Assembly (NCBI GenBank): GCA_964016885.1 | Contig: OZ024742.1 | Span: forward strand, 132,804,001 to 132,868,000 | Source: Eledone cirrhosa | Lineage: Eukaryota | DNA: 64,000 nt | Reading direction: 5' to 3' | Shown: positions 2,874 through 52,442 of the stretch, piece by piece | Layout: the number at the start of each line of letters is the position of its first letter | Position numbering within the stretch: position 1 is the first letter of the stretch | The notes under the pieces: generated by a model | Told to the model about the DNA's origin: nothing | The model's database searches: none | The model's input: the letters and a program-made list of their open reading frames with translations, nothing else | Program-made: the position numbers and the translations under genes

Positions 2874-2937
<64 letters not shown>

Positions 2938-2966
2938 CATATATATATATACATATATATATATAC

Positions 2967-3043
<77 letters not shown>

Positions 3044-3049
3044 TATATA

Positions 3050-3095
<46 letters not shown>

Positions 3096-3101
3096 TATAT
3101 A

Positions 3102-3163
<62 letters not shown>

Positions 3164-3296
3164 TAGATACATACACACATATTTACATATATATGTAAAT
3201 ACATGTATATATATATACATACACACACATATATATATATATAAGTATATATATATATATATACATACATATATAAGTATATATATATATATATAT
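2874..3296. repeat. (TA)n microsatellite, one of many in the window
   Basis: Direct reading; similar tracts at ~10.8, 11.9-12.3, 14.2, 15.2-16.4, 36.7, 57.8 and 60.2 kb. Confidence 0.99.
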
Positions 3297-3359
3297 TAAC
3301 ATAAATGTAAGTATGTATGTATACGTACATACATATATGTATACAGACGTACAGTAGCA

Positions 3360-3397
<38 letters not shown>

Positions 3398-3548
3398 CAG
3401 GTACACATACATATATGTACGTATCAGTTTAGCGGACGCTTATTATAGCGCCCGCTTTGTTCGTTTGTAAACAAACTGAACAGCCTGAATTTATGCCGTA
3501 CGGTGTTAAGGCAACCACGTCACCTTTTTGTTCAACACTGACACAGGA

Positions 3549-3591
3549 ACGATGTACTAGTTTCAAGCTTGTTAGCTATCATCAGCATCGT
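3549..3591 (-). ncRNA. Minimal type I hammerhead ribozyme
   Basis: ACGATG-CTGATGA-tAGCTaacaAGCTt-GAAA-CTAG-TA-CATCGT: 6-bp stem I, intact core, palindromic ACTAGT stem III, GUA triplet. Confidence 0.9.
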
Positions 3592-3823
3592 ATACCCTTC
3601 TGCCAGATGGTTGAACGTTCGATAGTATATACTTTCCTTATGAAAATTAACGGCTGAGCAGCCTAATTTGCATATCGAGTGAGTCCGGCCAGGCGTACCG
3701 AGAACGACAAGTTGTAATAAAATGAAAACGAAATGTCATTTCTCACTCTTAGTACGGCACTTACTTAAATGTAAGTATGTATGTATACGTACATACATAT
3801 ATGTATACAGACGTACAGTAGCA

Positions 3824-3893
<70 letters not shown>

Positions 3894-4122
3894 CAGGTAC
3901 ACATACATATATGTACGTATCAGTTTAGCGGACGCTTATTATAGCGCCCGCTTTGTTCGTTTGTAGAGTGAGAAATGAAATTTCGTTTTCATTTTATTAC
4001 AACTTGTCGTTCTCTGTACGCCTGGCCGGACTCACTCGATATGCAAATTAGGCTGCTCAGCCGTTAATTTTCATAAGGAAAGTATATACTTTCGAACGTT
4101 CAACCATCTGGCAGAAGGGTAT

Positions 4123-4165
4123 ACGATGCTGATGATAGCTAACAAGCTTGAAACTAGTACACCGT
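4123..4165 (+). ncRNA. Minimal type I hammerhead ribozyme, inverted copy
   Basis: ACGATG-CTGATGA-TAGCTAACAAGCTT-GAAACTAGTA-CACCGT; one stem I mismatch. Confidence 0.85.
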
Positions 4166-4316
4166 TCCTGTGTCAGTGTTGAACAAAAAGGTGACGTGGT
4201 TGCCTTAACACCGTACGGCATAAATTCAGGCTGTTCAGTTCGTTTACAAACGAACAAAGCGGGCGCTATAATAAGCGTCCGCTAAACTGATACGTACATA
4301 TATGTATGTGTACCTG

Positions 4317-4380
<64 letters not shown>

Positions 4381-4578
4381 TGCTACTGTACGTCTGTATA
4401 CATATATGTATGTACGTATACATACATACTTACATTTAAGTAAGTGCCGTACTAAGAGTGAGAAATGAAATTTCGTTTTCATTTTATTACAACTTATATT
4501 AACATACATATATGTATATATATATGTATATAAATACATATATGTATATTTACATATATATATAAATACATATATGTA

Positions 4579-4675
<97 letters not shown>

Positions 4676-5807
4676 CATTTGGTAAAGATCTGTATATTAA
4701 GGTGCATGCCTGCCAACATCAAATATACTATTACTATTGTTGTTAATTTTATTATTGTTACAGATGATGCTTCTGCATCTACTGATGATGGCGAATGTGA
4801 TGTTGAATCAAATTCTGCTGCTTTCGTTTTCGGATCTATTTTTTAAAAAAGATTAGATAATTATAGGTTGGTGGAAATTCACTCTGTATAATGATTAAAT
4901 GTATGAAGAAAATAAGCAGCATTATGCGAGATCCGAGCAAAATGTGTTAGCTGGACATTTTCGGAAGCCATCGCGTATGACTGTGTGATTATTTATGTAT
5001 TTATGACTGTGTATTTATTCATTTATTTATGTATTATGTATGTATATATGTTTGTATGTATGTATGATGTATGGATGAATGTACATATGTATGAATATAT
5101 GTGTCCGGGTATATGATATATGTGTGTATGTGTGTACACTTGTATATTTTAACGCCTGCACAAATAGTGATGGATGAATCAAGGACAATGCTTTAAAATA
5201 ATTACTGGGGTAGATAAAACCTTGGAGGCAACGCCCCGGCTTTTCTGCATATCAAACATTGACTACCTAACATAAGTTATTTTCTTTATAGTAATACTTT
5301 TCCTATAATATCATGATATAAGCTTATACTAATGTTCGCATGAATTTAGAAATACACATTTAAAATCACATATTAAATTCTATTAAGAATAGAAATAACC
5401 TGAATGTTGTAGTATTATATTTCCAGGAAGATTTATGTCAATATACATCTTTCAGCAACGTGTGGCATGTGACAACAACTACCAAACACCATTATTAGAC
5501 ATACGGTCATTAAACATAGTGTATATAATTTCCTTTTATATACTTATCCATAAGAGAATATTGTCGTTATTATACTTATCAATTTCTGGTTGTCAACCAA
5601 GCAATATTCTATACTAAGTAAATTATTCCTGGCAGTTTCTTTAAATTTTTTACAAGAATCTGTAAACATTGAAATATCAACAGATGGAAATCGTGCTATC
5701 CGATTCCTGTCGAAGATTTATGTCGTGACAAAACAGTTAATCCGATCATTCTACATTTTTATCAACCATAGGGTGTAAGGTTTGACGTTACGAAATATAT
5801 GTTAATT

Positions 5808-5851
<44 letters not shown>

Positions 5852-6026
5852 AAAACTTTCGCTCTACATGGCTGAATACATCGCTGTTTACATGCCAACA
5901 CAAGACCAAGAATGAAGAGTTCATTCTACTGACATGGCTATAAAAATGAGGCTTATTTGCAAAATTGCAAACGAAACGAATGTTATTATTAATATTCAAA
6001 AAACTCATATTACATTTATATATATA

Positions 6027-6094
<68 letters not shown>

Positions 6095-6099
6095 AACGG

Positions 6100-6591
6100 T
6101 AAAAATGAAACGAAATATAAGTATGTATACGTACATATATATATGTATACAGACGTACAGTAGTATGTATATATATACATACATGCACACATATATATAT
6201 ATATGTACGTATGGATTCACGGAACATTTATTATAATGCTCTGTGTGTTTGTAAACAAACATCCCGAATTAAGCCGTACAGTGTCTAGCAACCATCGTTG
6301 CTCATTTGTTCAACACTGACAAAGGAGCGCTGTACTAGTTTCAAGCTTATTAACTATCGTCAGCAACGTATACCTTCCTGCCAGATGGTTGAACGTCTGA
6401 AAGTATATACTTTCCTTATGCATAGTAACGGCTGAGCAGCCCAATTTGCATATCGAGTGAGTTAATCGGCCGGGGTACCGAAAAATATAAAGGGAAAAAA
6501 TGAAACGAAATTTCATTTCTCACTCTTAGTACGGCTGTTACTTAAATATAAGTATGTATACGTACATACATATATGTATACAGACGTACAG
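6100..6591 (-). mobile_element. Diverged copy of the ~465-bp HHR unit with terminal redundancy
   Basis: Colinear with 3303-3766; AAATATAAGTATGTATACGTACAT..CAGACGTACAG appears at both ends. Confidence 0.85.
6328..6368 (-). ncRNA. Minimal type I hammerhead ribozyme, covarying homologue
   Basis: CGTTG-CTGACGA-tAGTTaataAGCTt-GAAACTAGTA-CAGCG; changes keep the pairing and the core changes only at variable position N7. Confidence 0.88.
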
Positions 6592-6603
6592 AGAGAGAGA
6601 TAG

Positions 6604-7136
6604 TGTGTGTGTTTATCAATGTACATGGACAGCCAGCAGTGTATGGAATCTATAAACTACGAAAGGTGAGGTAGACGCATAATAAGTAAAAATATAAATC
6701 AGAATGAATTTACACACCTTTATAAATATATATCACACACGTACAAACCCAAAGAGATTTGTTTCGCCAAAAGATTAGTGAATGGAATGAAACACCCAGG
6801 TTCATCAGCGTGTGGTAAGTGGATACATTCCAGACAACTCTAAGAAATACCTAGGATAACGGCCTTGAAACACGTGGCAGAGGGACGTTTTGTGCGCGAG
6901 GGACAGTAAACTAGACAGTAAACTAGCCTGGGTGGAATGAGCGTCTATAAATCGCAGCCTGAACCACTCGTATAGGGGTGTTCTGCTAGACAAATAGAGA
7001 GAAGACTGTTATTAGGAGCAATATATCAAAATAAATTAACTGAGTCATAGACTCGCGTTAGTCCCTGTAAATTCTGAGCTCAAAGGAAATAGAGTCCTGT
7101 GCTCTCCAAATATGATATGTAGAAAAGATAACACAC

Positions 7137-7195
<59 letters not shown>

Positions 7196-7318
7196 TGTGT
7201 GTGTGTGTATTTATAAATGTACAGGGAAAACCACCACTGTATGGAATCTATAAACTACGAAAGGTGAGGCAGACGCATAATAACTAGAAATATAAATCAG
7301 AATGAATTTACCCACCTG
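6604..7318. repeat. ~115-bp diverged direct repeats flanking a ~480-bp segment
   Basis: GTATGGAATCTATAAACTACGAAAGGTGAGG..ACGCATAATAA..ATATAAATCAGAATGAATTTAC at ~6604-6719 and ~7198-7318. Confidence 0.8.
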
Positions 7319-7502
7319 TATAACTATATATATATCTCACCAGGAAAATTGAATTAAACAGGTCTAGTCCCGTAGAAGCCATTTCTATATCAAATATTGT
7401 ATATACTTTTTGAGTACCTTACTTACTGTTGTTACCTCCGATTGAACCCGGGATACACACACGCGCTCTCACACACACACACACACACACTCACACATAC
7501 AT

Positions 7503-12339: not shown

Positions 12340-12463
12340 TTGCCATTCTGAGTTCAAATCCCGCCGAGGTTAACTTTGCCTTTCATCCTTACGGGGTCGA
12401 TAAAATAAAGTACCAGTAATGTACTGGGTAATTGCTGGCCTTGTGCCAAAGTAGAAACAATTA
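12340..12463 (+). mobile_element. tRNA-derived SINE, 5'-truncated
   Basis: B-box GAGTTCAAATCC then CCGAGGTTAACTTTGCCTTTCATCCTTACGGGGTCGATAAAATAAAGTACC, matching the 45323 copy. Confidence 0.85.
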
Positions 12464-12512
12464 TTTTTTTATCCAGTTAGTAAAATAAGTTGGATTACTT
12501 TGAAAAAAAATA

Positions 12513-12702
12513 ATTGATTCTACTTTTGGCACAAGGCCAGCAATTTTTCCAGTGTATTACTGGTACATTATTTTATCGACCCCGTAAGGATGAAAGGCAA
12601 AGTTAACCTCGGCAGGATTTGAACTCAGAATGGCAAGGGCCTAACTCTATGCTGCAAAGCATAGCGTCCGGCTCTCTACCGCTACTGCCAATCCACCGCC
12701 CT
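12513..12702 (-). mobile_element. tRNA-derived SINE
   Basis: Reverse complement of the 45323-45506 family. Confidence 0.85.
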
Positions 12703-12714
12703 TTTAATAAATAA

Positions 12715-12817
12715 GTGTTTCTACTTTTGGCACAAGGCCAGCAACTACAGTGCATTACTGGTACTTTATTTTATCGACCCCGTAAGGATGAAAGGCAAAG
12801 TTAACCTCGGCGGGAAT
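12715..12817 (-). mobile_element. tRNA-derived SINE, partial
   Basis: 3' half of the same family. Confidence 0.8.
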
Positions 12818-13920
12818 GAATGAATATTACATAATGTATGTACTAAATTTCGTAAACAAAAATAATTTCGTAAAAATAAATAATTTAAAATTGACTTCTT
12901 TTCAAAGTTGCACTTCCGGTATATCGTTGCCACCACTACCACCACTTCAACTACCATATATATAGAAAGAGAGAGTGTGATGTCAACACTTCCGGTGGCG
13001 ATCCCTTAAATAAACATACTAATTTTCTGTCACTAATTTTCTCCTAATGCAGTTTATATATAATATCGTATTTTTTTAATGTATCATGGATTACGTTACT
13101 GATTACATAAGACAGTGTAACAAAGTATTCCTTCAATTTCTGTTTATATTGTCAATTACGATTTTATTTGATGTATCATATCTACTTGTATATTACTTGC
13201 GTATAATATCAATATACACACTACACATGCTAGCAGAAAACCACCCGATGTGGTGGTTTTTCTGCTAGTATATATAAAATTATAAGTTTAAAGACCTGTC
13301 CGACAAAATATATCGAATTTTTCTTCTCCTTAGTCCGTAGAAGTCAATTAGATAAATAATCATTTAAACGGAGCTAAGTTTAAAATGTAACTTTGAAGAA
13401 ATAACAGTTAAATGTCACATACTATCCTCTGTGTAAAACAGTCAGATATAATTTACCTAGTCTTTCCTCTTAGGTCGTAAAAATTAACTAGACAAATAAT
13501 CAATAAAACGGAGCCAAGTTTAAAATGCAAGTTTGAAGAATCTTCTATTCTCGATTATCGATAGTTTCGCTCGTATTTTGTGGATATGTCCAACCCTGGT
13601 ATTATCTACGAGGCTTCGAGCATCAAAGAGACTCCATTAGAACTAACATTTAAAAAGTGATCGCCGACAGAAATGAATTCAAAAAGGGTGATAATCATCA
13701 CGTGTCTAGCGGTCAAAGTAGAAGGGTGTGAAAGTTAGGCCGGATGGCAGGTAGGTTCACTGCTAGAAGGAGCAGTTAGTTACCGGCTAAGGTTTTCTCA
13801 ACTGAAAGGGAGTAGAGAATAAATTCATAAGGATATATATGTATATATTTAGACATAGTCACAGATACATATATGAGTGTGTCTACCTTCCAAGTTGTGG
13901 CTCTATGAAAAAGTTAATCA

Positions 13921-19133: not shown

Positions 19134-22100
19134 ATGGCTGTGTTGAGAGTAGGTTGTCTAAATGCGCGTGGCCTGGGCTCACCTTGGAAGCAAGCAATGT
19201 TTCTAAATGACCGCAGGTCACGATGTATAAATGTGATGGTTGTTTGCGAGGGCCGGATCAGCAGCGTGCGACAGCTGGTCCCCACCTTTGATGACTTTGA
19301 GATGCACCCATCTCTGTCAGCCCGGAGGTGGGGGTGGGATTGTCGTTCTCCTGCAAAAACATTTGTGTCTCGCTACACAGACGGTACACTTGGACCAGGA
19401 GGGTCGACTAGTGATTCTGGACCTTGGCAGTGTTGAAGGGGGAGCTTTTATTTTAGGCTGATCGCCGTCTAAGGCCCTTTTGGGTCAATGCGCCCGGACA
19501 TCTTCCATCGTCTGGAGACTTATCTAGGGATGTCCTGCTCCTTGCTTTTAGTGGGGGACTGGAATGGTATCCTAGATGCACATTGTGACTATGTAGGGGA
19601 ATGTCCTTATAGAGGGGGTTGTAACAACCTCAAGGGGTTAATCGACTAGATTTTCCATCTGTGCCAACCTGCACTTGGACAAACCATAGCGGTCAATTTA
19701 TATCGTACCTAGATAGATCCTTTTTTAGAATTAAGGATAGGGACTTTTTAAGTTGTCCAGAAATGCTCATGGTTGGCTATTCAGACCACAATTTAGTGAC
19801 CTCCATGGTCAACCTTGATATAACGCATAGGCAGGGACCCGGTTACTGGAATCTCAACTTGTCCTTACCGGCAAGTAAAGCTTACAGGGACCGGATTTGT
19901 ACTTTAATTAAGGAGCGTTTGACGAGCGCCATCGTCAACGAGCAGGTGGTGGGGATCTCTCAAAAGAGAGATTAAAGTAGCTTCAATAGGAGATAGTAAG
20001 GAGTCAGCCTTATATAGAAATAGAAAGGAAAGAGAGTTGATAGATAGTGTAGAAGAGGCAATTAGAAACGGCGACGTAGCCAGAGTGCTAGCGTCGAGAA
20101 TGGCCTTGGGCCGACGCGAAACACGAAGGGTGCGTTGTCCGAAGCAAAATACGTGCTCTGGGAAACGAGGGTACCAAGGTTGTTAGCTGGGCCCGCGTGA
20201 CAGAAGCCAAAAGTGGGATTAGATCCACTATCCGGTCTTTGCGAGACCAAGATGGACGGGTGATCCTTGAACCTAAGCAGATGTGCGAGGCCTTTCAAAG
20301 GCACTTTGCCCGATTGTTCGGAAGAGGCGAGGGGCCGGATGGGGATGTGGACTTCGGTCCATACCTCGACGGCCTGCCGCGTCTTTCGGACGAGGAGACG
20401 AAGTCCTGCGAGAGGCCGATGTCAGCTGCTGAAATATGGGACGTGCTGAGCCAATGCGGCAGACGCAAATCTCCGGGCCTCGATTGTCTTCCATACGAAC
20501 TGTATTTAAGTATGCCGCACTTGTTCTTCGATCTCCACGAGGTGGTCTACTAAAACTGGCAACAGAACGAGTGAATTCCCTGTTCTGTCACCAAGGGCGT
20601 AGTCTCGCTAGTGAGGAAGGACGAGAACAAGGGGGATGAAATAAGTAATTTCAGGCCCATAATTCTGCTAAATGCAGAGTTAAAGAATTTGGCCAAGGTG
20701 TTAGTAAATAGGTTGGCGCTTGTCGTGAGCAACCTGTGGGAAATGCGCAGACACGCGCCATCCCGTCCAGGTCCATTCACGACAACCTCCACCTCATGCG
20801 ATACATCATAGAGAAGCTTGGAAATGAACACGGTTTGGTGGGGTGAGCAACTTGGATCAATCTAGGCGTTCGATAGGGTCGACCATCGTTACCTGGATGC
20901 GGCGCTAGTGGCCGCATGTTTCGGACCCGTTTTCAGGGGCTGGATCACTGCCATGCACAGCAGCTACATCTGCTCTAGAGTCAAGGGAACGGCTACATCC
21001 CGGAGCCGTTCGAAATCACGAGGTCCATCCGACAGGGATGCCCTTTCTCCTCCATTCTGTATGTATTGGCCCTAGAGCCACTGCTGCAGAAGTTGGAGTT
21101 GTTACAGGGCATCCCTTTGGAACCGGGATTGCGGAAAACGATGTCGGCCTACGCCGATGACGTGTCAACCGCCTCGGAAATCGGGGTGATCGGCACCTTA
21201 CTGGAGGAATACGAAAGGTTTACAGGGGCTAAGCTGAACCGGGACAAGTCAGTCGGTTTGCAACTCGGCGAGTGGAGGGGCAAACCGATGGCCTCCAACG
21301 GCGTCGTCGGACGTTAGACGGAGGGCCCGGTGAAGTTGCTCGGGGTCTGTTTCGGGCCAGACCTCCAGGTCGAGAAGAACTGGGGTGAGGTATCGAACAG
21401 GGTGTTTTCGCTGACGTAGAAGTGGGCTGGTTGCAAACTATCCCTGAAAGGTCGGGCCGAGGTGGCGAACGCTTATATAGCGTCCGTCATCTATTACTGC
21501 CTGACCATCGTGCCTTGCCCAAGGGAAACGCTCACCAAAATGGAGCGCGCGCTCTTCCAATTCCTTTGGAAGAAGCGGGCTTCTTTGGTGAGGAGATCCA
21601 TCTGCTGTCATCACCCTTCGAAAGGAGGGCTGGGGTGCCGTGGCTGCTGATGCGTAAACACGCATTAAGGCTACGGCACCTCTAGGCATTCCTCACCGGT
21701 CAGCAGATGTGGACGCCGTTTGTGAGGCGAGCCTTTCCGACACTCGTCTCGCTCACCGAGCTGCAGTTCTCGGTCAAGAAAAGATCGAGAAAACTGGGCG
21801 CACGGCACACCGAGTGTGCCCAGGCGCTCACGGCTCTCTGGCAGGCGGACCTGTCTATCGGTGGAGTCTCCACCTCGTCATTCTATACAAGGCTGGTGGT
21901 TAGTAGGTGCGAGGACGCCTTCGGAGAAGCCCTAGGCATGGAAGAAGACGAACTGGCCAGCCTATTCGGGAGGACATTTGGCCCGGGATCTATGGACAAC
22001 TTCCAGAGGTCCCTGACCTGTCAGTGCTACCAAGGGGAGCTCCCCGTTCGAGAAAACCTCTACAGACACAGGCGCCCAGGTAGGGACTCCTCGAAAAAGA

Positions 22101-22518
22101 TCTGTCCCAAATGCGATCGCGACGAGAAAACCGTTGCGCACGCATTGGTACACTGCTCGGACGTTGCCGATATGTGGGGCTATGTCGAACGACTGCTGTC
22201 ACGGGTGGGACAAATCCGGTTGAGCACCTAGTCCATTGTAACGATCAAGCCGCCTTCCTCCTTCAAAACTGAAGGAGAAGCGGTTTTCCTCTGTGTAATA
22301 GCCATGGTGAAAGAGGTGGTATGGTGGACACGTTTGAAAGGGCTGAGGTCGGACACCTTTCTCTCCGGCCAACAACTGATCCTTTTCTTTAAATACCATT
22401 TTAAGAGAAGGATCAGAATGGAGAAGAGGTGCTCTACCACAGCAAGTTTTATGAAAGGTGGGTGAAAGTAGCGAGAATGGCCCGTCTGAATGGGCCTACT
22501 CTCTTTATCAGCCTGTAG
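19134..22518 (+). pseudogene. LINE ORF2 (AP endonuclease, reverse transcriptase, C-terminal Cys/His), disrupted
   Basis: Motifs in order: LNARGL, GDWN, SYLDR, SDH, GPGYW, KSPGLD, FRPIILLN, AFDRVDH, IRQGCP, YADD, CPKC..HALVHC. Confidence 0.95.
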
Positions 22519-22871
22519 GTGGAAAGGTGGAAGTTCAAAGGAGCACCCCCTCTCTATACTCCTAAGGAAAAGGGTTGCACACTTTTTCGGGGGGGGGGGG
22601 TAACCCCTAAAACGCCTCCTCCCTCTTGAGGACTGTATTGTTAATTTTATATTTGCTATTTGTTTTTTACTCCTTCCTTTATGTAAAGAGACCCCCCTTT
22701 TATTTGTCCTCTTCTGTTGTGCCCTCGTGGCGAATAAATAGAAACTTATCTATCTATCTATCTATCTATATCTATATATATATATACGAAAATCTTTAAC
22801 CCCGACGGCAGAGTTCAAGCCGTTTCGACGGCTATTTCTGGTCCAGAATATATATATATATATATATATGT

Positions 22872-23248
22872 GTCTAATGGTAGCTAAGATGCTTCCATGG
22901 GCGGTATGGCGGTTGAGCACTGTATGCTCCTACGGAACAGAGTATTATTGAATGGAAAACGAAAATCAGTGATGCATCGAACTCAATTTATTGTGTGTTA
23001 CAATTGTTTCTCCGGTGAACAGCCCGAGTTGCGATCTGTGTGTGGATCGACCTGACTCTAAACCCGCAGTTTCCTCGGACACATCTATTAAAAGAAGACA
23101 TGCTCCGAAATCAATACAGAAGTCCGAGGAACCTGCGGGTTTACACTCAGGTCGATCCACACACAGATCGCACCTCGAGCAGTTCACCGGGGAAACAATT
23201 ATAACACAATAAATTGAGTTCCGATACATCACTGATTTTTCGTTTTCC

Positions 23249-23250
<2 letters not shown>
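22872..23250. mobile_element. Fold-back element with two divergent HHR-like motifs, extended stem II
   Basis: ~130-bp inverted arms 22951-23250; minus motif 22994-23083 TGTGT-CCGAGGA..GAAA-CAATTG-TA-ACACA; homologue at 59585-60175. Confidence 0.8.
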
Positions 23251-25682: not shown

Positions 25683-26048
25683 CTTGACTCTGTTTTCCTG
25701 TGTTTTTCATCGAAAACATTTTGAATACATCTTCTCTTTTCATGATATTTGGATTACATTGAGTTCTTCATACGCATTGGACACTACCGTATATTTTGGT
25801 AGATTTATCTATCTCTCTCTCTATATATATACAGTGCCCCGCAAAAGTTTACAACACATTAGGAAAAATGCGGTTTTAGGTATTTTTAATAAAGTTAGGG
25901 TAATGAAAATTTAACTACCGATAGAACATACAATGAGGCATTTAATGATACAATCATAGTTTTAAAAAAATAACAAGGAAATAACTCATGAAGAAAAATC
26001 AATATTTTTATAACGCAAAAGTTTACAACACATTTATTAAATCATCTC

Positions 26049-27055
26049 TTAATATTTCGTAGCGTAACCTTTGTTGCTAATTATAGCCTGCAGGGCGTTT
26101 GGAGTAGCCTCCTACAAACTTCTTGCATGTTTATTGGCTAATATTTATCCATTCTTCACAACAAATTTTCTTTAGTTCAGGGATATTTTGGGGTTTCTTT
26201 TTTTGAATTCTCTCCACAAATTTTCGATCGGGTTAAGATCTGGAGACTGACTTGGCCATTTTAGAACATTTATTCCATTCGTACTCAACCAAGATTGTGT
26301 TAGCTTTGCAGTATGCTTTGGATTGTTATCTTCTTGACAAAACCAACCTGGCTTTAAGCTGAGAGAATGTGCACTTTGATGTAAATTCCTTTGGAAAATA
26401 CCTCTATAATAAGTGCCACCCATTCTTCCTTCTATTATTTCAATATTTCCTACTCCTGTGGCACTAAAGCAACCCCAGACCATAATTGATCCACCTCCAA
26501 ATTTTACAGTTGGAATATTATTCTTCAGCGAATATTCAGTATCTTTCTTTCCCAGACTTTTGCCACAGCATTTCGACCAAAAATTCAATTTTTGTTTCGT
26601 CCGACTAAAGTACATCTTCCCAAAATGACGCAGGTTTGATGAGATGCTCATTTGCAAAGTTTAATCGACCAAGAACGTTGTTTCCTCGTAAGAAGTGATG
26701 TTTTCCTTGGAGACCTCGAGAAGATATTATATCGACGAAGTGAACGACTAATTGTATCTGTGCTCACTTTTACTCCACTTTCTTCTAGGTCATCCTGAAG
26801 ATTTTTAAGAGTACACCGGGGTTCGTTGCCAATCTTTCTCGTCAATAACCGAGCTGCACGTTCCGTTATCTTTCTAGGACAACAAGGACTAATTAGAGGA
26901 CAGATGGAATGATGAGATTTCCAGTGACGAATTGTACCAACTGAACTCAATGGCACATTTAACTGACAAGATATCTTTCTATAACCAACACCATTTGTAT
27001 GAAGGTCTACAATGCGTTTACAGAGGTCTTGATCAATCAGTTTATTTTTCCCCAT
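26049..27055 (-). pseudogene. Tc1 DD34E transposase, frameshifted
   Basis: MGKNK.. start, SDETK, PTVKFGGGSIMVWGCF, EDNNPKH to WPSQSPDLNPIE with 34 residues between D and E, ending GYATKY*. Confidence 0.95.
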
Positions 27056-27262
27056 ATTGTCCATGTTTACAGGACGGTTGTCAATGTTTACAGGATGGTT
27101 GTCAGACAAATAATGATGTAATGTTTTTAATAGTCCTTAGAAGTTACCTTAAACCTAATCTAGAACATTCTACTGAATATTAAATCTGAAAATTTAAGAA
27201 TTTTCTTGAAAAAAAGCGATAAATATAAAATGTGTTGTAAACTTTTGCGTTATAAACATATT

Positions 27263-27442
27263 TGTTTCTACTTTATGCACAAGTCCAGCAATTACCCAAT
27301 TCATTACTGGTACTTTATTTTATCGACCCCGTAAGGATGAAAGGCAAAGTCAACCTCGGCGGGATTTGAACTCAGATCGTAAAGGGACGTAACTATCCTG
27401 GAAAGCATGGCGTCCGACCCTCTACCGATACTGCCAATCCAC
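27263..27442 (-). mobile_element. SINE inserted in the Tc1 right TIR
   Basis: Full SINE flanked by imperfect TSD TAAACATATT/TAAAAATATT; the left TIR lacks it. Confidence 0.9.
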
Positions 27443-27625
27443 TAAAAATATTGATTTTTCTTCATGTGTTATTTCCTTGTTACTTTTTTAAAAATATGAT
27501 TGTATCATTAAATGCCTCACTATATGTTCTATCAGTAGTTAAATTTTCATTACCCTAACTTTATTAAAAATACCTAAAACTGCATTTTTCCTAATGTGTT
27601 GTAAACTTTTGCGGGGCACTGTATA

Positions 27626-27752
27626 TATTAAAATAACAGATGAAAGTTTAAGCAAATAATCGCTGCTTTAACCCTTAACGCGATCTCCTGAACGTGCCAT
27701 TAAGGGTGACAACAGCGATTCTTTGCTTACACTTTAATATGTTATTTTAATA
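27626..27752. repeat. ~125-bp imperfect hairpin, MITE-like
   Basis: TATTAAAATAACA..TAAGCAAATAATCGCTG..ACCCTTAA pairs with TTAAGGGT..CAGCGATTCTTTGCTTA..TGTTATTTTAATA. Confidence 0.75.
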
Positions 27753-28112: not shown

Positions 28113-31100
28113 TAGCAGTTTAGCCCGGTGTTGCTCGGGTTTATTCATTTGTTATGGAAAGTTACATACAGTTAAACGTGGCTTGAAAGCGAATAAGCTT
28201 ATCAATTAAGTGCATAAAGCAGTTGAACCGGATATTAAAAGTTACGAACCAATTAGCATTTTGGACAATCAATGATTGGTTAATTATCTTCCAATAGCGA
28301 ATTTAGCACACCAAAGTTGCAAGATGGTGGCCCTGATGCCGCTGGGTGACACATCTGTCCGCCATGGTTGACGCTACCAGGAATTAGTTTTCCAGACGGC
28401 ATAGCTCCAACAACTCCAACACCTGCACCAACATCTATAGCACCTCTTTGTAGACGATATTGCGTGTAATCCCTTGAGGAGTGTAAGCGCAAAGTGCATT
28501 CCTGCTCCCTACCTGGGAACAGGCAACATACAGTTGACCATGGGAGAGGTATGTCTCCCCCAAATGGATGCCCGCTACCTACAATGTTTGCCCTTGTGAC
28601 CTGTTAATGGACCTGTCAAAACATCGTCTCATCGGGAAAATCGGATCGACGGAAATCGAACGGGATATCTGAGACCGAGGGGAAAAGGTTCATCCTTGGA
28701 ATGAAAATAGTCTCCCGTCTCCCGCTCCCCGTTACAATGGTGGCCTCAATCAAGTGGGGCGTCATTGACTTGACGACCATGCGAGTACCGTTGCACTGCT
28801 TTGGTGGGCGCATGTCCCTTATTAGCTTAATGAGACAGCCAACCCTAAGCTTAGAGAATGGGAGGTGGGAGCCCTGAGGCTCAAGGGAATTTAATAACTC
28901 AACAGGATAATTAAAGATATCGTCGGGGTCTGACGTCCGGTCGATAGATTTGAAGATGTGCTCTTTACCGGGAATTTTCTCAATCAGTTGCTCGTTAATA
29001 AAATTAATCATGGCATCTTTCGGAGCAATGATGGCCCTTTCGCTGAGCCAATCGAACGTTTTAAAGTTAGATGAGACATTTGGAAAAACTGCCTCCCAAA
29101 GGTCAGAAGGGCTGCTCACAATGTTGCACAGGGAGTGGATTGTTATGCCGCCCTTGTAATCCGCAGGGACCTTGCCCTCACCAAGTTCTAAAATGTTCTC
29201 AGCAAATGCTGCAAACATGTTGTTACCATGCAAATGAGCACGCATATTTGTACAAAGTCTTCACCTGGGGCCACAACGTGGACGACTTAAGGCAGGCACG
29301 CACTTCATCAGCTCTTGTCCCTTTGGGTATGACAGGCAGCGTTTGCAGAAAATCCCCTGATAGCAGAAGGGTTACGCCACCTATAGGAGCCGTAGAATCC
29401 CTAATCTCTTTCAGGGTCCCGTCCAATGCCTCAAGGGCACCCTTTTGTGCCATTAGGCACTAATCCAAAACAATGAGGCAACATTTTTTGAGAACCAGAA
29501 CTTCGTGTGAGCTCTTGCCGATATTGCATGTTGGTGTCGCAGTTTTTACTAAATCCAAGGGGAGTTTAAAGGTTGAATGTGCTGTCCTGCCTCTCAGCAG
29601 CAAAGTAGCAGCGATCCCTGACGATGCAACGGCCAACGCAATTTTTTTCTTCTGACAAATCTTAGCCGGAATCAATTTTGTTACAAAAGTTTTTCCGGTA
29701 CCCCCAGGAGCATCGAGAAAGTAAATACCCCCAGTCTGATTTTGAACCGCGTCAATGATAGTTAAATAGGCCAACCTTTGGTCCGACAGACGTTTGGGCT
29801 CATTTTCCTCTAAGTATTGGGAAAGAGATTCGATGTCATATGCTGTTTCCTGCAATAAATCTGGGGCCAACGTGTTAACTTCATTTGTAACGGTTGACGG
29901 CAAGCCATACGTCGCCAACTTACTCCCACTCATGTCGAGGAAGGCGTCCTCGATATCAATGAGTACCCTGTTGTAGATAATGCCGCTGTAAGCAACGTCC
30001 ACTGAAGGATACTGCAGATGAGCCAGGCGCAGGAAATCCTCAGACATGATGTCTCTGTACTTGACCCATAAAGATTTGGATTCACACTTTTGAAGCAAAA
30101 TGGCAAATAGTTCCTGTAGACCTTTAGGTGATTTCAACAAAGCACCCTCTGCTAAAGTGGAATCCCATTGCGAATTATCGTCCAAAAAACCACGCTTAAA
30201 GCAGGCTTCCCGGTACGTATCACATATTTCTCCATTAACAGTTTTGAGGTCCTGAACACTTTGTGGGTCTACAACTTCATGCAGAAGAAGGCGGAGATGA
30301 AAGCACTCATGCTGACTTGGGGGCACAGTTTAAAACCTTCCAAGACAGCTGTCAAATTTTACACCAGGATGTCTTTCAACAGCCTGACCTGACATTCTTC
30401 GCACCCATGTGTTATTCGACCATATAAAGTTGGATGGAACCTGGGGGTACACAATTGTTTGCGCAAATGTATCGAACTGGCAAAGTTTGAAGAAACCTGT
30501 TAGAGTGGTCTCTTTCGGATCGGCGGCCAGCTTGGCGGCGGTTTGGTCCGTAAAGTAAACCCTTTGCCCATTTTCCAAATGTTCCGCATGCTGTACGATG
30601 GCGGGGTGCCGTTGGTGTAGGGGGAAATCAAATAGGCGCCAAAAAGCTTCATTGCTACTGATGTACCGCCCCGCCAGGTATTCTGTGAACTCATCAGAGC
30701 CCTTATTTACATATTTGCATATGTATATTGACGGAGTTGCCAAACTCAACGTTGATGTGGGCGTTGAACATCTTCAAGAGAAGCGGGCAGTAAGGGACCA
30801 CACATCTATTGTCGATTGACCTCCCGTTACTGCTGTGGTGAAGCCACTGTTCTCGGGCCGTCTCCGCCTGTACAGGGGGTACCCATCGTCACCAGTCTGA
30901 GTCTCGTCAACAATTTTTGGGGGGTATCCCTTACTGCACGACGCCCTTTCAGACACGTGTGATGCCCATTAGGACTCGACGCACACGGACCATGTTAGCT
31001 TTGACGATGTCATGTAATTCCTGGTCAGTTGCTGGGTTAGGGATTTCAGCCGAAATGAAGCTTCTATGGCATTTGAATTGATTTTATCAGCTAACCAAAT

Positions 31101-39967: not shown

Positions 39968-40615
39968 TGCACTCATCCAGTGCCCGTGTATTGCTGACTT
40001 ATAGATTTATGTCGAACAACTATTGTCGTGTGTGGGGCGGATCCGGCTATCGACCGAGTCCATACTGAATATCGCCCCACCGCCTTATTTTGACCGGGAA
40101 GAGCAGGCAGTTTCCCTCTGTCTGATAGCTGTAGCGAATGAGGTGAGTGTAGTGGACGTGACTGAAAGGTCTGAAGACCGACACTTTCCTCTTCAGTCAA
40201 GCCCGCGTCAGCTTTTTCAAGCTCCATTTGAAGAGAAAGACAAGGGTGGAGAGAGAAAAGCTGCCCCCCCCCCCCCCCCCCCCCCCCCCGAACATTTAAA
40301 AAAAAGGTGGGTGACTGTTGCGAGAATGGCCCGCGTGAATAGGCCCACTCTAAACATGTGCCTGTAGGCTGGAATGATGGAGGGAGAGAGGAGTGCCCTC
40401 CTAGGGTGCTCTTGGAGATGAGGGTGAGTTGGGATTTTTTGGATTCCTAACGTCACCCCTGGGTGGTACTCCTCCCACTATGGGGGAACTCTGTTGTTTA
40501 TATTTTTTTATTTATTTGTTTTGTGAATTATTTTTACTTGATTTCATGTAAACCCCACTGTCCCGTCTTTGTATTGTCCTCTATGTCCGGCCCTTGAGGC
40601 CAATAATAAAGAAAT
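39968..40615 (+). mobile_element. L1/Tx1-type LINE 3' fragment
   Basis: Colinear with 22140-22745 (VGRIRLST, RWV.VARMAR), same 3' UTR end. Confidence 0.9.
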
Positions 40616-42796: not shown

Positions 42797-42979
42797 TTTC
42801 TATAAAGCCTAATCCCTGAAAACCAACGTTGAAGTACGTTATTGATTGCGAGAGATAACGAGATGAGAGAGATAATATTGAAGGCTACCTGAAAATTATA
42901 GCAACCAGCATGCAAAAAACACACAAAGGACAATTTGGAGGATACAATTTTCAATGCTTGAAATCTGAAGAAATATAAT

Positions 42980-43163
42980 AGTTTCTATTTTAGCCACATG
43001 GCCTGCAATTACCCCAATCCATTAACGGTACCTTATTTTAAGACTCCGTAAGGATGAACGGCAAAGCTAACCTTGGCGGGATTTTTACTCAGAACGTAAA
43101 GGGCCATACCCCTATGCTGCAAAGCATGGTGTCTGATGCTCTACCGATACTGCCAATCCATCC
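42980..43163 (-). mobile_element. tRNA-derived SINE, diverged
   Basis: CCGTAAGGATGAACGGCAAAGCTAACC..CTCTACCGATACTGCCAATCCA. Confidence 0.8.
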
Positions 43164-44990: not shown

Positions 44991-45322
44991 CTCTTTTCCT
45001 ATATATATTTTTTTTCCACTCGTTAATTTGTATTTGATTTGAAATTGAGTAGGAAATTTCTATTATGAGTTGAGTGCCTATGGAAGGGTCAGAGCATAGA
45101 ATCTCGACTCCTAACCATAACAAATTGTTGAACCAGTAGCCAGTCTGTTGGCGATATTTTGATACGCAGAGGTATTCCAGTTACTAATGTTCTAACGTGT
45201 CACCCATCGCATTTAATGCCATAGCCAGCGCAGATTTGGAATCGAATCCTTTCGATCGAATGTTTATTTATTAGGCGAGACCCGCTGAAGAAGCCAAATG
45301 CGCCGGTTGTGTATTACTGCAT

Positions 45323-45506
45323 GTGGATTGGCAGTATTGGTAGAGAGTCGGACACCATGCTTTCCAGCGTAGTTACGTCCCTTTACGGTCTGAGTTCAAA
45401 TCCCGCCGAGGTAGACTTTACCTTTCATCCTTACGGGGTCGATAAAATAAAGTACCAGTAATGCACTGGGTAATTGCTGGCCTTGTGCCTAAAGTAGAAA
45501 CAATTA
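45323..45506 (+). mobile_element. tRNA-derived SINE, reference copy, octopus-type
   Basis: A-box-like TGGCAGTATTGGTAGAG and B-box GAGTTCAAATCC; about nine copies or fragments in the window. Confidence 0.88.
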
Positions 45507-46169
45507 TTGCATTATAAATGCAGACAATGGATACTCTACGCCCTCTTACGGCATTAAGTGTGGCAGAAACTCGAGTACGGGTATACATTTATGGTACCTA
45601 TTTACGTGAGTTGTAGCGAGGCAAATAACTTTGTGCCCACTCTGAGATGTATACATAACCTTACCCATGTGTACACCGAGGTGTAATCGGTACTAGCAGA
45701 GAAACATTCATTTTATTAAGGCTATACTTTTAGTTATGTTACTCTGATGTTTCGCCTGATTATCAGAGGGTCATCAGCCCCGTCGTCAACTACATAAATA
45801 GAAGTATGATTCTACTTATGTAAACTCCAGCTGTTAATAAGTGGTGATATATATGTAGATAAATTCCATTTGAAATTGGAAAGTTTGAAAAGTCTTTTTG
45901 AATATATTTCCATCGGACTGGAAATGAAAGTACTAAAATCGTCAATATATCTCAAACAAAATAAACGAATGTACTAGCATCTGTTATTTCATAAGCGAGG
46001 AATGTCCATAGATATTCCACAGACACGTGTAGATAAAACGTAGTTCTGTTGTGAGATCAACACGATGTACTATGACAAGATTATAAATTTGCACACTGTA
46101 AAGTTTATCGAACAGACTTCCATAATCTTGCTTCCATAAAGAAACTGTAAACAAATAATATATATATAA

Positions 46170-47820
46170 GTTAAAAACAAAAAACAAAACAATAACGAAG
46201 AGTGCAGTACAAACAGTGTTGGTATTAAGTTCACGCTTGAGAGTGGGGGTGGGGGAACGACGTTTCGGGCATAAGCCCTTCATCAGGAGATAGTGGGAAG
46301 GAAAAGAGTTCCGAGGGTGGAGGGGGAGAGGTGGAAAGATATTATAATGGAGGAAAAATTAAAGGAAAGGAAAAAAAATTAAAATGAAAACAAGTGGTGA
46401 AAGGATGTGAGAGGTGTAGAGGTGGTGGTGGTGGATGGAGGCGGGAGAGGGGAAAAAGAAACAGGGGGTCCGAGCGGGGAGGGTGGAAGGTGATGTGTGT
46501 GTATGTGTGTAGGTGTGCGTATGTGCGTATGTGTGTTCGTGTACGTGTGTGTATGTGTGTATGTAAGTGTGAGAGTTTAGGGAAGAAGGATGTTCCATGT
46601 TCAGATAATAGGAAAACTAGAGTGTACATGATTGGGGTGTAAGTCAGTGTGTGTTTGTGTGTGGATGAGGAGGGCTCGGGGTGAGATGGTGGTGGGGTGC
46701 GGAGTCCGGAGGCCGACTAGGTGTATGTGAGGATACGCACGTGTATGTGTATGTTTTTGTGTGGTGTGGATACGTGGGAATGTATGGTTGCGTATGTGTG
46801 AAAATAGTGTCCGGTGACTTTATGGACAGATGGTGGACAAATCAAAGTATAAAAAATGGATGTCCAGAACGTGTGACCAGTGGTGTAGGTTCCGTGGGAT
46901 GGTGCGGAGGAAGTAGAGAGTTGTGGGGCGCGCGCGCAACAGGAAAGTGTCAAGAAGGTCAAGGCAGGCGTGGAGAAGGCAGGGCGTAGGATGCGAGAGA
47001 GAGAGGAGATAGCAGCTAGGAGGATGACAGACAAGTGACTGGTTGTTGGCAGGGATGGTCTGTATGTGTGTGTGGAATGTGTGTATGTGTGAACAGAGGT
47101 GCGGTGGACAGGAGAGGAGGTGGGTTAGTGTGAAAAGATGAGTGATAGGGTGGCGGTGTGTGTGGGTGTCCTGTGTGTTTATTAGTGAAGGAGTTAGTAG
47201 GATGTTTGTGTGGGGGATGTTGGTAGTACGGGGCGAGAGAGAGAAGGGCAGGGTACAGTATGAGTGAGTGTAATATACTGGTGTGTGTGTGTCCGTGTTT
47301 GGGTAAGAGTGTGTATGTGTGGTAAGGTGGTTATTAGTATTATTACTGGTTGGGGTCGATTTCAGGAATGTGGGTGGGGGTTAGTGGTGATAGTGCGGGT
47401 GTGGAGTGGGTTGTGTATCGATGTGTACATGGGTGAGGGTGAATGTATGCATGCTGCTGTGTGTTCGTGTGTGGGTGCTGAGTGGGAGGTGGGTTGGGGT
47501 TAGTGGTAGTAGTAGGGTGTGTGAATAGTGTGAGTGAGTGTATATATGTACTGGTGTGTGTGTGCGTGTTGAGGGTGTGGGTGCGCATATGATAGGGGAG
47601 GGGTTGGGGGTTGTTACTATTATTAGTTGTGGGGTTGAGCAAGGGGAAGGGGTGGCTGGAAGTGAAGGGGACGGTGAATCTTGGGCATGTTTTAGTGGTG
47701 TTAGTAGGACGGTCGTAGACTAAAGGAAGAGTGGTGGGGAGTTCAGGCCGGATGGGGGGGGGCGGTATGTAGGGTGAAGATGGTGTGTTGTTCGGTCCTA
47801 AGGCAGATTGCAGGGCTCCC
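46170..47820 (-). mobile_element. Probable Penelope-like relic with terminal HHR motif
   Basis: Minus 46257-46288 reads TCCTGATGAAGGGCTTATGCCCGAAACGTC (core and stem II perfect, stem I weak); the rest is strongly strand-biased G/T-rich sequence. Confidence 0.6.
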
Positions 47821-51699: not shown

Positions 51700-52442
51700 C
51701 GAAACTGACGTAGGAAGATTTTGAGATCTACTCATCACTTAGTCGGCCTGGAATGGAAGGTGGAATGCTGGTGCTGTTTAAGTAAGGCCTGGATCTCGAT
51801 GTACGGATGATTTACCTGGACACAGACGGTAATTTGATGGTCCTGGATATGCGCAATAGCGAAGTTTATCCTCTTAAACTGATGGCAGTCTACAGATTGG
51901 AGCATGACAGCTGGATTTCTTCAGGCGTCTAGACAAATTTCGAGGAATGTCGTGCCCTTTACTGTTGGCAGGGAATTGCGACGGCATTCTTCGACGCAGG
52001 CTGGGACTGTAGGCGAGCAGCTGATATAAGCGAGGAGGCCCAATACCTCAAGAACCTGATCAGGCAATTGAATCAGTAAGTCGAAGCCTAGTAACGCTGA
52101 TGAGGCGAGACAATAAAAAGAGATTCGTTATGAATAGTTTCCGGCCAATAATACTGCTTAACACAGAGTGTAAGATCTTGGTTAAGGTGCTAGCAATGAG
52201 ACTGATACTCGACGTCAAAAGTCTAGTGGGGAGGCACAAGCATGCGCAATTCCAACTAGGTCCAAAAATGACAAAACTCACCTCATCATACAGAGTGGAG
52301 GGAGTACAGTTGGCTTTGATGGAGTTCTCATCAATTTTGATCAATCAAAAGCTCTCGAGAGGGTCAACTTGGAGGGTGTTTTCTACAGCCGGTTACCATA
52401 CAATCTTAAATAGCTGATCATTGAAATGCACAGCGGCATCTG
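51700..52442 (+). mobile_element. Internally deleted L1/Tx1 ORF2 fragment
   Basis: Endonuclease segment homologous to 19290-19640 joined to RT motif SFRPIILLNTECKILVKVLAMRL. Confidence 0.85.

Follow-up and report, generated by a model that had tools for sequence, protein, structure and literature searches.

The insertion at positions 3302–4495 of the window, the 64,000-nt stretch of Eledone cirrhosa DNA that we analysed, consists of two arms in inverted orientation, a left arm of 664 nt (3302–3965) and a right arm of 531 nt (3965–4495). Both are built from a repeat unit of 464 nt, which reaches 490–496 nt where the TA tracts are longer (Table 1). A preliminary description of this DNA had proposed a unit of about 465 bp, present as about 1.4 direct and about 1.15 inverted units; measurement gives ~1.4 and 1.1 units. 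The partial unit of the left arm spans 200 nt for 168 aligned sites owing to a longer TA tract, and the first 41 nt of the right arm are repeated from 4455. Given that the hammerhead ribozyme lies on the minus strand in the left arm and on the plus strand in the right arm, the arms meet head to head, with an RNA 3′ end at either outer border. The abrupt junction previously placed at 3964/3965 is this head-to-head join, with one base common to both arms. The near identity noted earlier is also borne out: five substitutions separate the arms over 448 aligned sites, and the repeats within each arm do not differ at all (0 of 168 sites on the left, 0 of 41 on the right). At two of the five sites, 3623 and 3735, the left-arm letter is private, because nearly all of the family depth in the public run X1 carries the right-arm letter; we infer that the other three are right-arm changes, based on the older copy described below and on their absence from the 40 of 106 variants listed. 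On the assumptions that the two arms started out identical and that the Octopus rate applies (a distance of 0.09 taken as 25 My, as implied in the available text of PMC13282606), the insertion would be 1.6 My old (0.5–3.6). A read-through transcript of 3302–4495 would contain an inverted repeat of ~450 bp, a long double-stranded RNA that could be a substrate for A-to-I editing or small-RNA production.

Table 1 Positions of the insertion, its target, the hammerhead ribozymes and the older copy in the window
Feature	Position	Strand	Remark
(TA)n-rich target, left flank	2874–3291		Sequence
12-bp target-site duplication, left copy	3292–3303	+	TATATTAACATA; last 2 nt common to element
Left arm, complete 464-nt unit	3302–3765	−	Hammerhead (RNA sense) on minus strand; RNA 3′ end at 3302–3304
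Internal (TA)n tract of unit	3361–3394		Other copies at 3827–3893 and 4317–4377; lengths differ
Extended helix I domain, left arm	3530–3616	−	UAU loop 1 and distal stems; kept in diverged copy
Type I hammerhead core, left arm	3549–3591	−	Intact; predicted cut (GUA) between 3555 and 3554
Octamer-like ATGCAAAT	3666–3673	−	Sense strand; also 4041–4048 (+) and 6444–6451 (−)
Left arm, 5′-truncated partial unit	3766–3965	−	Equivalent to unit positions 3302–3469; head to tail with full unit
Head-to-head (5′–5′) inversion junction	3965		1 nt of microhomology; 3469 and 3749 in unit coordinates
Right arm, complete 490-nt unit, circularly permuted	3965–4454	+	RNA sense on plus strand; starts at unit equivalent 3749
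Extended helix I domain, right arm	4098–4184	+	Counterpart of 3530–3616
Type I hammerhead core, right arm	4123–4165	+	Predicted cut after 4159; A–C mismatch in helix I (4162)
One-sided tail, 57 nt	4439–4495	+	Beyond left-arm end position; contains 41-nt terminal repeat (4455–4495)
12-bp target-site duplication, right copy	4495–4506	+	TATATTAACATA; first nt common to element
Right-flank target, (TA)n followed by (AG)n	4507–4675		Sequence
Older insertion of same family, ~79–80% identical	6094–6591	−	Partial unit, full unit and shortened tail
Hammerhead core of older copy	6327–6369	−	Catalytic core preserved; predicted cut 6333/6332

The catalytic core of the hammerhead (CUGANGA, GAAA and NUH, in type I helix order) is kept in all three copies, with U or C at N7, and a scan for the compact hammerhead motif returned three occurrences in the window, whereas 100 shuffled versions averaged 0.0. 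A search of the whole window against Rfam had no match of any kind at the gathering score, and none of the 119 matches at E ≤ 10 over 3300–6700 was a hammerhead, most being miRNA models on (TA)n. Helix I has 6 bp followed by a UAU loop and further stems; helix II has 4 bp, with U–U at its base in all three copies instead of the G10.1–C11.1 pair; and helix III is 1 bp closing a palindromic CUAG tetraloop. These dimensions are those given for canonical metazoan type I hammerheads in the available text of PMC4209133 (helix I of 6 bp plus loop 1, helix II of 4 bp, helix III of 1–2 bp with a palindromic loop), and they differ from the minimal form, which has a helix II of 7–8 bp, a short helix I without a defined loop 1, and G10.1–C11.1. 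Our core scan placed a compact 43-nt hammerhead in each complete unit, and its cut sites, at the positions predicted earlier, and there is one hammerhead per arm, so that the array indeed holds no two on the same strand one unit apart. The earlier label ‘minimal’ does not stand, as helix I extends the domain to ~87 nt (3530–3616), and the ACUAGU described as stem III is a self-complementary palindrome but most plausibly forms 1 bp and a palindromic tetraloop. Five variants of the 43-nt core, at N7, in loop 2 and at one helix I pair, appear among the 40 of 106 variants listed. Apparent covariation at the helix I pair was discounted, because the match was not repeated between runs (51/49% and 5/5% in X21, 7/38% in X1).

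By computation, closing helix III within a monomer costs 5.4 kcal mol−1, whereas the intermolecular ACUAGU duplex yields −4.8 kcal mol−1. Given these energies, and the newt and axolotl ribozymes that show the same pattern (PMC7229834, in the text available), cleavage is probably dimer-dependent, as had been proposed. With a 1-bp helix III and U–U in helix II, the predicted ribozyme looks weak. According to the same source, the axolotl ribozyme HHR_Amex1 shares the 1-bp helix III and palindromic tetraloop, HHR_Amex2 shares the U–U at the base of helix II and is an active ribozyme, both are more active as dimers, and the newt satellite 2 ribozyme shares dimer-dependent cleavage. The two weakening features, which are separate in the axolotl ribozymes, are here combined in one ribozyme, in a mollusc host.

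A multi-unit RNA is predicted to adopt a cloverleaf fold in which every unit has its own extended type I hammerhead. For the 341-nt non-microsatellite part, fold z scores relative to shuffled sequences are −5.3 and −4.6 in sense and −2.7 and −2.8 in antisense orientation, with +1.2 and +0.9 for two controls. Changes on both sides of a pair occur in 6 of the 78 consensus pairs between two copies, four of them in one hairpin, in a comparison of two sequences to which the structure was itself fitted. The unit has a GC content of 37.5%, and no open reading frame was found in it or between repeats; the longest ATG frame, of 70 codons, runs through the microsatellite. The period closes on itself without an ORF in both the focal and the older insertion, and the reverse transcriptase (RT) plus GIY-YIG endonuclease frame that characterizes an autonomous Penelope-like element (PLE) is absent. 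We found no tRNA-like part in the unit, and no LTR, PBS or PPT (the last two sought by eye). The octamer-like ATGCAAAT has a post hoc chance expectation of 0.017 in the unit and lies inside one of its best-conserved blocks (3646–3684), which is unchanged in a contig from organism B; it is a possible candidate promoter element. It resembles the octamer of newt satellite 2, which has a promoter of the snRNA type.

The insertion left a clear footprint. It is bracketed by a 12-bp direct repeat that is a target-site duplication (TSD), 9 bp of it unambiguous. On the plus strand of the window TATATTAACATA occurs only twice, at the two borders of the element; TTAAC occurs once in each TA-rich flank, at the border, and only 0.16% of pairs of non-alternating 11-mers match between the flanks. 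The right arm overshoots the end point of the left arm by 57–59 nt, forming a tail that has no counterpart on the left. The 12-bp TSD, the one-sided tail, the (TA)n target and the third, older copy all go beyond the preliminary description. Two conserved 7-bp arms, CTCACTC and GAGTGAG (3675–3681 and 3742–3748), flank a hypervariable stretch that includes the tail end, and the outer end of the helix they form coincides with the 5′ truncation point of the right arm.

The older copy repeats parts of this geometry. At its 3′ end it runs into (TA)n no more than a few nucleotides from the unit position at which the right-arm tail ends. Its tail connects to the left-arm end position across a gap of 36 nt, so that this copy has a break there. 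The recurrent 3′ end position rests on these two insertions. A TSD was looked for at the borders of the older copy (6094–6591) and none was found. The hammerheads of the older copy and of the left arm share the minus strand and lie 2.78 kb apart (6333 to 3554), and a read-through RNA cut at both sites would free a 2.78-kb piece that includes the inverted repeat. The 5′ end of the older copy is abutted by one member (6590–6733) of a 144-bp direct repeat, 88% identical to its partner at 7188–7331; each member begins after (AG)n.

In unit coordinates the left-arm 3′ end lies 16–18 nt upstream of the right-arm 5′ end, a gap that fits twin priming, in which the second primer sits just upstream of the stop of the first cDNA. 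A LINE RT (L1-Tx1 or RTE) acting on multimeric RNA, with its first primer at the tail end, could account for the inverted arms, and a Tx1-like RT fragment is present in the window; both L1-Tx1 and RTE elements were recently active in Octopus vulgaris (PMC13282606, available text). We nevertheless consider this origin unlikely. There is no poly(A) or LINE-like 3′ tail; the hammerhead, the tail and the microsatellite target are indicative of PLEs; at a single locus a gap of at most 20 nt has a chance probability of about 1 in 6; and the older copy, too, breaks at the left-arm end point, as would be more likely with a fixed start site than with a chance second primer.

A connection to PLEs could also mean that the copies are debris, the truncated terminal repeats of an autonomous element, and do not form an independent non-autonomous family. 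Pairs of hammerheads on opposite strands 100–700 bp apart in Schistosoma were read in this way in the available text of PMC4209133. Here, in each of two independent insertions 20% apart in sequence, one unit directly follows another and no ORF is present, and the ribozyme is of the canonical extended type instead of the minimal PLE type, which makes debris a slightly poorer explanation still than the LINE origin.

Twenty public sequencing runs from 16 studies contain parts of the stretch, none of them recorded as RNA. In the read survey, 4 of the 23 listed runs were aligned to 3395–3826, and the unit-to-unit junction (3759–3826) was skipped as repeat. The family is very abundant in organism A, where 4,231 contigs of run X1 and 78,497 of the 12.47 million RAD reads of run X21 (0.63%) match; the summed depth is ~10^6 against 5–7 for the longest listed contigs, depth not being equivalent to copy number. 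It is also present in organism B, with related pieces in run X4. Around 3685–3725 most family copies resemble the older copy, which places the focal locus in a minor subfamily. No family member turned up in pattern scans of viral contigs, metagenomes and prokaryote genomes.

Changes of strand recur in the family. Among the 15 joints listed of a total of 121, 11 change strand, all of them in X21, with 0–4 nt shared at the join and breakpoints at 3433–3489 and 3550–3637; fragment geometry suggests that their direction is head to head. X21 is one reduced-representation run in which read ends on AATT words, which we take to be the enzyme cut site of the library judging from enzyme pairs used in ddRAD, limit the visible range. 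Three of the 11 strand-change joints adjoin an AATT site and may be chimeras; the other eight do not. A pile of loose ends at 3491–3493 in the same run was rejected as an element terminus: each of the six peaks of molecule ends falls on AATT (3488, 3645 and 3665; 3732 in a family variant), which makes them products of enzyme cutting and chimeric ligation. The 5′ breakpoints show no enrichment within 5 nt of the hammerhead cut (1 of 11, with 1.0 expected); 3 of 11 lie 8–12 nt upstream of the core, where 0.45 would be expected, and two of these three adjoin an AATT site.

These joints bear on whether the focal structure is real. Inverted repeats of this length between microsatellites are difficult for assemblers, and the focal junction (3469/3749) is absent among the 15 of 121 joints listed; both points would fit an assembly or fold-back artefact, or an inverted duplication at the locus at the DNA level. 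Yet the arms differ at five sites and in TA length and so are not one molecule read twice, the TSD brackets the whole structure between flanks that are not mirrored, and breakpoints of the same kind occur at other positions in independent reads. An artefact or a local duplication is accordingly very improbable.

We propose that the locus records a single retrotransposition event in which a non-coding, retrozyme-like element was moved in trans by the RT/GIY-YIG endonuclease of an autonomous PLE, a reading to which we assign a probability of about 0.78. Published PLE insertions, as described in the available text of PMC8557442 and PMC3846280, comprise partial tandems, an adjacent inverted and 5′-truncated copy, a tail of 30–40 bp (in one case 31 bp) at one end, 8–10-bp TSDs and a preference for (TA)n, with head-to-head joins the most frequent. 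The combination of TSD, partial tandem, inverted 5′-truncated copy, one-sided tail and (TA)n target at our locus matches this pattern. PLE mobilization is further supported by the older copy, which ends near the right-arm tail end and breaks at the left-arm end point, by the recurrence of inversions in the family, and by signs of PLE activity, namely a relic of a minimal PLE hammerhead at 46286 in the window and the 31 recently active families among the 190 PLE families that make up 6.83% of the O. vulgaris genome (PMC13282606, available text). In biochemical work on PAc, an anole PLE protein, both target strands were cut and extended, and cDNA synthesis began at two internal positions of the RNA that mark the limits of the tail (PMC11167929, available text).

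From the observed duplication, ends, junction and lack of an ORF we infer the enzyme, the two start sites and the source locus in the following scheme. A tandem source locus elsewhere would be transcribed into a multi-unit RNA with the computed fold. The PLE protein would nick both strands of the TA-rich target 9–12 nt apart, as the TSD suggests, and each nicked strand would prime one arm, its 3′-OH starting cDNA at an internal RNA site; start sites 57–59 nt apart, one for each arm, would leave the tail on one arm. For this two-start-site step the ends are seen and the mechanism is modelled on PAc. Both cDNAs would then pass one unit through an intact hammerhead site and join at their 5′-truncated ends, through the single nucleotide of microhomology seen at the junction. 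Five point changes and TA slippage would have followed. The hammerhead itself probably cuts only as a dimer, in multimeric transcripts of other loci and may release monomers that circularize.

Several observations count against mobilization by a PLE. An autonomous partner with a homologous terminal repeat was not found in five scans of viral, metagenome and prokaryote collections. The tail of 57–59 nt is longer than the published 30–40 bp. The preferences of PAc, for cutting at ATT and for an AC-rich start loop (PMC11167929, available text), are not clearly matched, the end of the older copy being U-rich. The older copy shows no TSD, and the common 3′ end comes from two insertions. An AUG at the hammerhead, as in PAc, was rejected as a shared feature because it is absent from the older copy.

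Within PLE mobilization, the nature of the template can be weighed separately. Simple end-to-end copying of a cleaved linear monomer can be discounted, since both 3′ ends lie away from the hammerhead cut and the listed 5′ breakpoints do not concentrate at it. The preliminary description had held that copies longer than one unit fit reverse transcription of a circular or multimeric RNA. Of the two, an uncleaved multimer would explain the arms as well as a circle would. A monomeric circular RNA of ~464–490 nt, formed by hammerhead cleavage and ligation and reverse-transcribed in rolling fashion from both target strands, would be compatible with a PLE enzyme and differs from our scheme in the template alone. 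It would account for the fact that all three copies exceed one unit and cross the cut site intact, for arms that start at different permutation points, and for within-arm repeats that are identical when at least two of the five differences between arms are private to the left arm, as from one template. Helices I and II are present in the minimum-free-energy fold of the circle, and in coral, mussel and axolotl, retrozymes with the canonical type I ribozyme yield circles according to published accounts. A homogeneous multimer predicts the same sequence pattern, and an arm length above one unit is no proof of a circle, given that a PLE RT initiates internally, extends both strands and takes uncleaved RNA; in vitro, uncleaved RNA was the main substrate of PAc and no reads ended at the hammerhead cut site (PMC11167929, available text). 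The two weakening features of the ribozyme also speak against the circle, as do published Xenopus dimers, eight of nine of which showed no cleavage in vitro in the account available. On balance we lean slightly towards an uncleaved multimer, regard the circle as a serious but lesser candidate, and leave a small remainder for template jumping.

Non-LTR retrozymes of metazoans, in the available text of PMC7229834 and bioRxiv 10.64898/2026.07.22.740005, are the closest relatives in form. Like the element described here, they are ORF-less and a few hundred base pairs long, with GC below 50%, a canonical type I hammerhead, head-to-tail repeats, a TSD of more than 4 bp and a highly paired predicted circle in which the hammerhead is free to fold, and PLEs have been proposed there too as helpers. 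Invertebrate units measure 150–450 nt, against 464–496 nt here, and inverted head-to-head arms with a tail are not described in the available parts of the retrozyme sources. The candidate retrozyme of the preliminary description is thus upheld as a hammerhead-bearing, ORF-less, retro-mobile unit of retrozyme type. An ‘active’ retrozyme has at least two consecutive units on the same strand, each with a complete hammerhead; both the focal locus and the older copy have one hammerhead per strand or arm, and for this reason the element is best filed as retrozyme-like and PLE-mobilized, and not as a demonstrated retrozyme.

Endonuclease-positive PLEs (Penelope/Poseidon, Neptune and Naiad; PMC3846280, PMC8557442 and PMC11167929, available text) share the partial tandem, the inverted 5′-truncated head-to-head copy, the one-sided tail, a TSD of 8–12 bp, the AT-rich microsatellite target and a hammerhead in the repeat. 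They differ in having an RT/endonuclease ORF, a tail of 30–40 bp and a minimal hammerhead, in place of no ORF, 57–59 nt and an extended hammerhead here. Chlamys PLEs such as MRC1 (PMC8557442, available text) likewise are non-coding, carry pseudo-LTRs, insert head to tail and are mobilized by a PLE, but they come from green algae, mostly lack canonical hammerheads, and have a demonstrated homology to an autonomous 3′ end. A link between PLEs and retrozymes has been proposed before, from shared hammerheads, co-occurrence and similarity of terminal repeats in frogs, and a circular template has been suggested for PLE tandems since 2014, as far as the available sources go. All of the building blocks are therefore known already, and what is added is the insertion footprint (TSD, one-sided tail and head-to-head inversion) on an element with a canonical retrozyme-type hammerhead. 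Within a literature search that had most subscription papers, Repbase/Dfam and the PMC7229834 supplement outside its range, no published report of cephalopod retrozymes was found, and the files searched of the PMC4209133 supplement contained no match for Octopus; literature linking retrozyme, head-to-head insertion and Penelope was not found either, again with most subscription papers outside the search.

The abundance of the family in organism A means that circular and linear templates can be compared over thousands of events. More speculatively, and rather doubtfully at present, the family may be a very high-copy octopod retrozyme family with an internal octamer promoter and a circular RNA of 460–490 nt made by dimeric hammerheads, copied around the circle by a PLE enzyme from two fixed start sites on both strands. 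If so, thousands of inverted insertions across the genome would document a mechanistic tie between PLEs and retrozymes with canonical hammerheads, and they would decide whether PLE machinery takes circular templates.

The remainder of the window contains further mobile-element remains. On the minus strand at 28616–30773 are Helitron-like PIF1 helicase fragments. Helitron-derived non-autonomous elements (HINEs) carry an internal microsatellite, hairpins and tandem duplications, and the unit, with its internal (TA)n, several hairpins and partial tandems, could in principle be such a HINE/DINE-like element duplicated in tandem by rolling-circle DNA replication. The 12-bp TSD, the 5′-truncated inverted arms, the conserved hammerhead and a strand-biased structure that keeps G–U pairs all indicate an RNA intermediate instead, which makes a Helitron origin the most improbable of the explanations considered here.

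The PLE relic on the minus strand (46250–46300, core at 46286) is a typical minimal PLE-type hammerhead, with an extra A after the core, a 6-bp helix II and a palindromic ACGU; its helix I is decayed, it adjoins no ORF and it belongs to a different family. At 45777, also on the minus strand, lies a weak hammerhead-like core (CUGAUGA … CGAAAC) with unconvincing helices I and III. A family of ~185 bp, 75–96% identical and presumably an octopus SINE, occurs at 12347–12818, where three pieces of mixed orientation cluster, and at 27254–27442, 42969–43160, 45322–45508, 55449–55605 and 59655–59851. Two palindromic elements of ~300 bp, 71% alike (22952–23250 and 59855–60172), each end in a long (TA)n and are either MITE-like or hairpin retro-insertions. 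A Tc1/Sleeping Beauty-like transposon at 25825–27628 has terminal inverted repeats of ~186 bp, 96% identical, around a broken transposase (DDE_3, HTH_SB). Pieces of a Tx1-like non-LTR retrotransposon lie at 20092–22749, 40005–40381 and 52025–52417, with a weak zf-RVT match; the best named match of the RT-element fragment at 20092–20550, which makes an octopod host likely, is from Argonauta hians, at 59% (two matches among 264 candidates).
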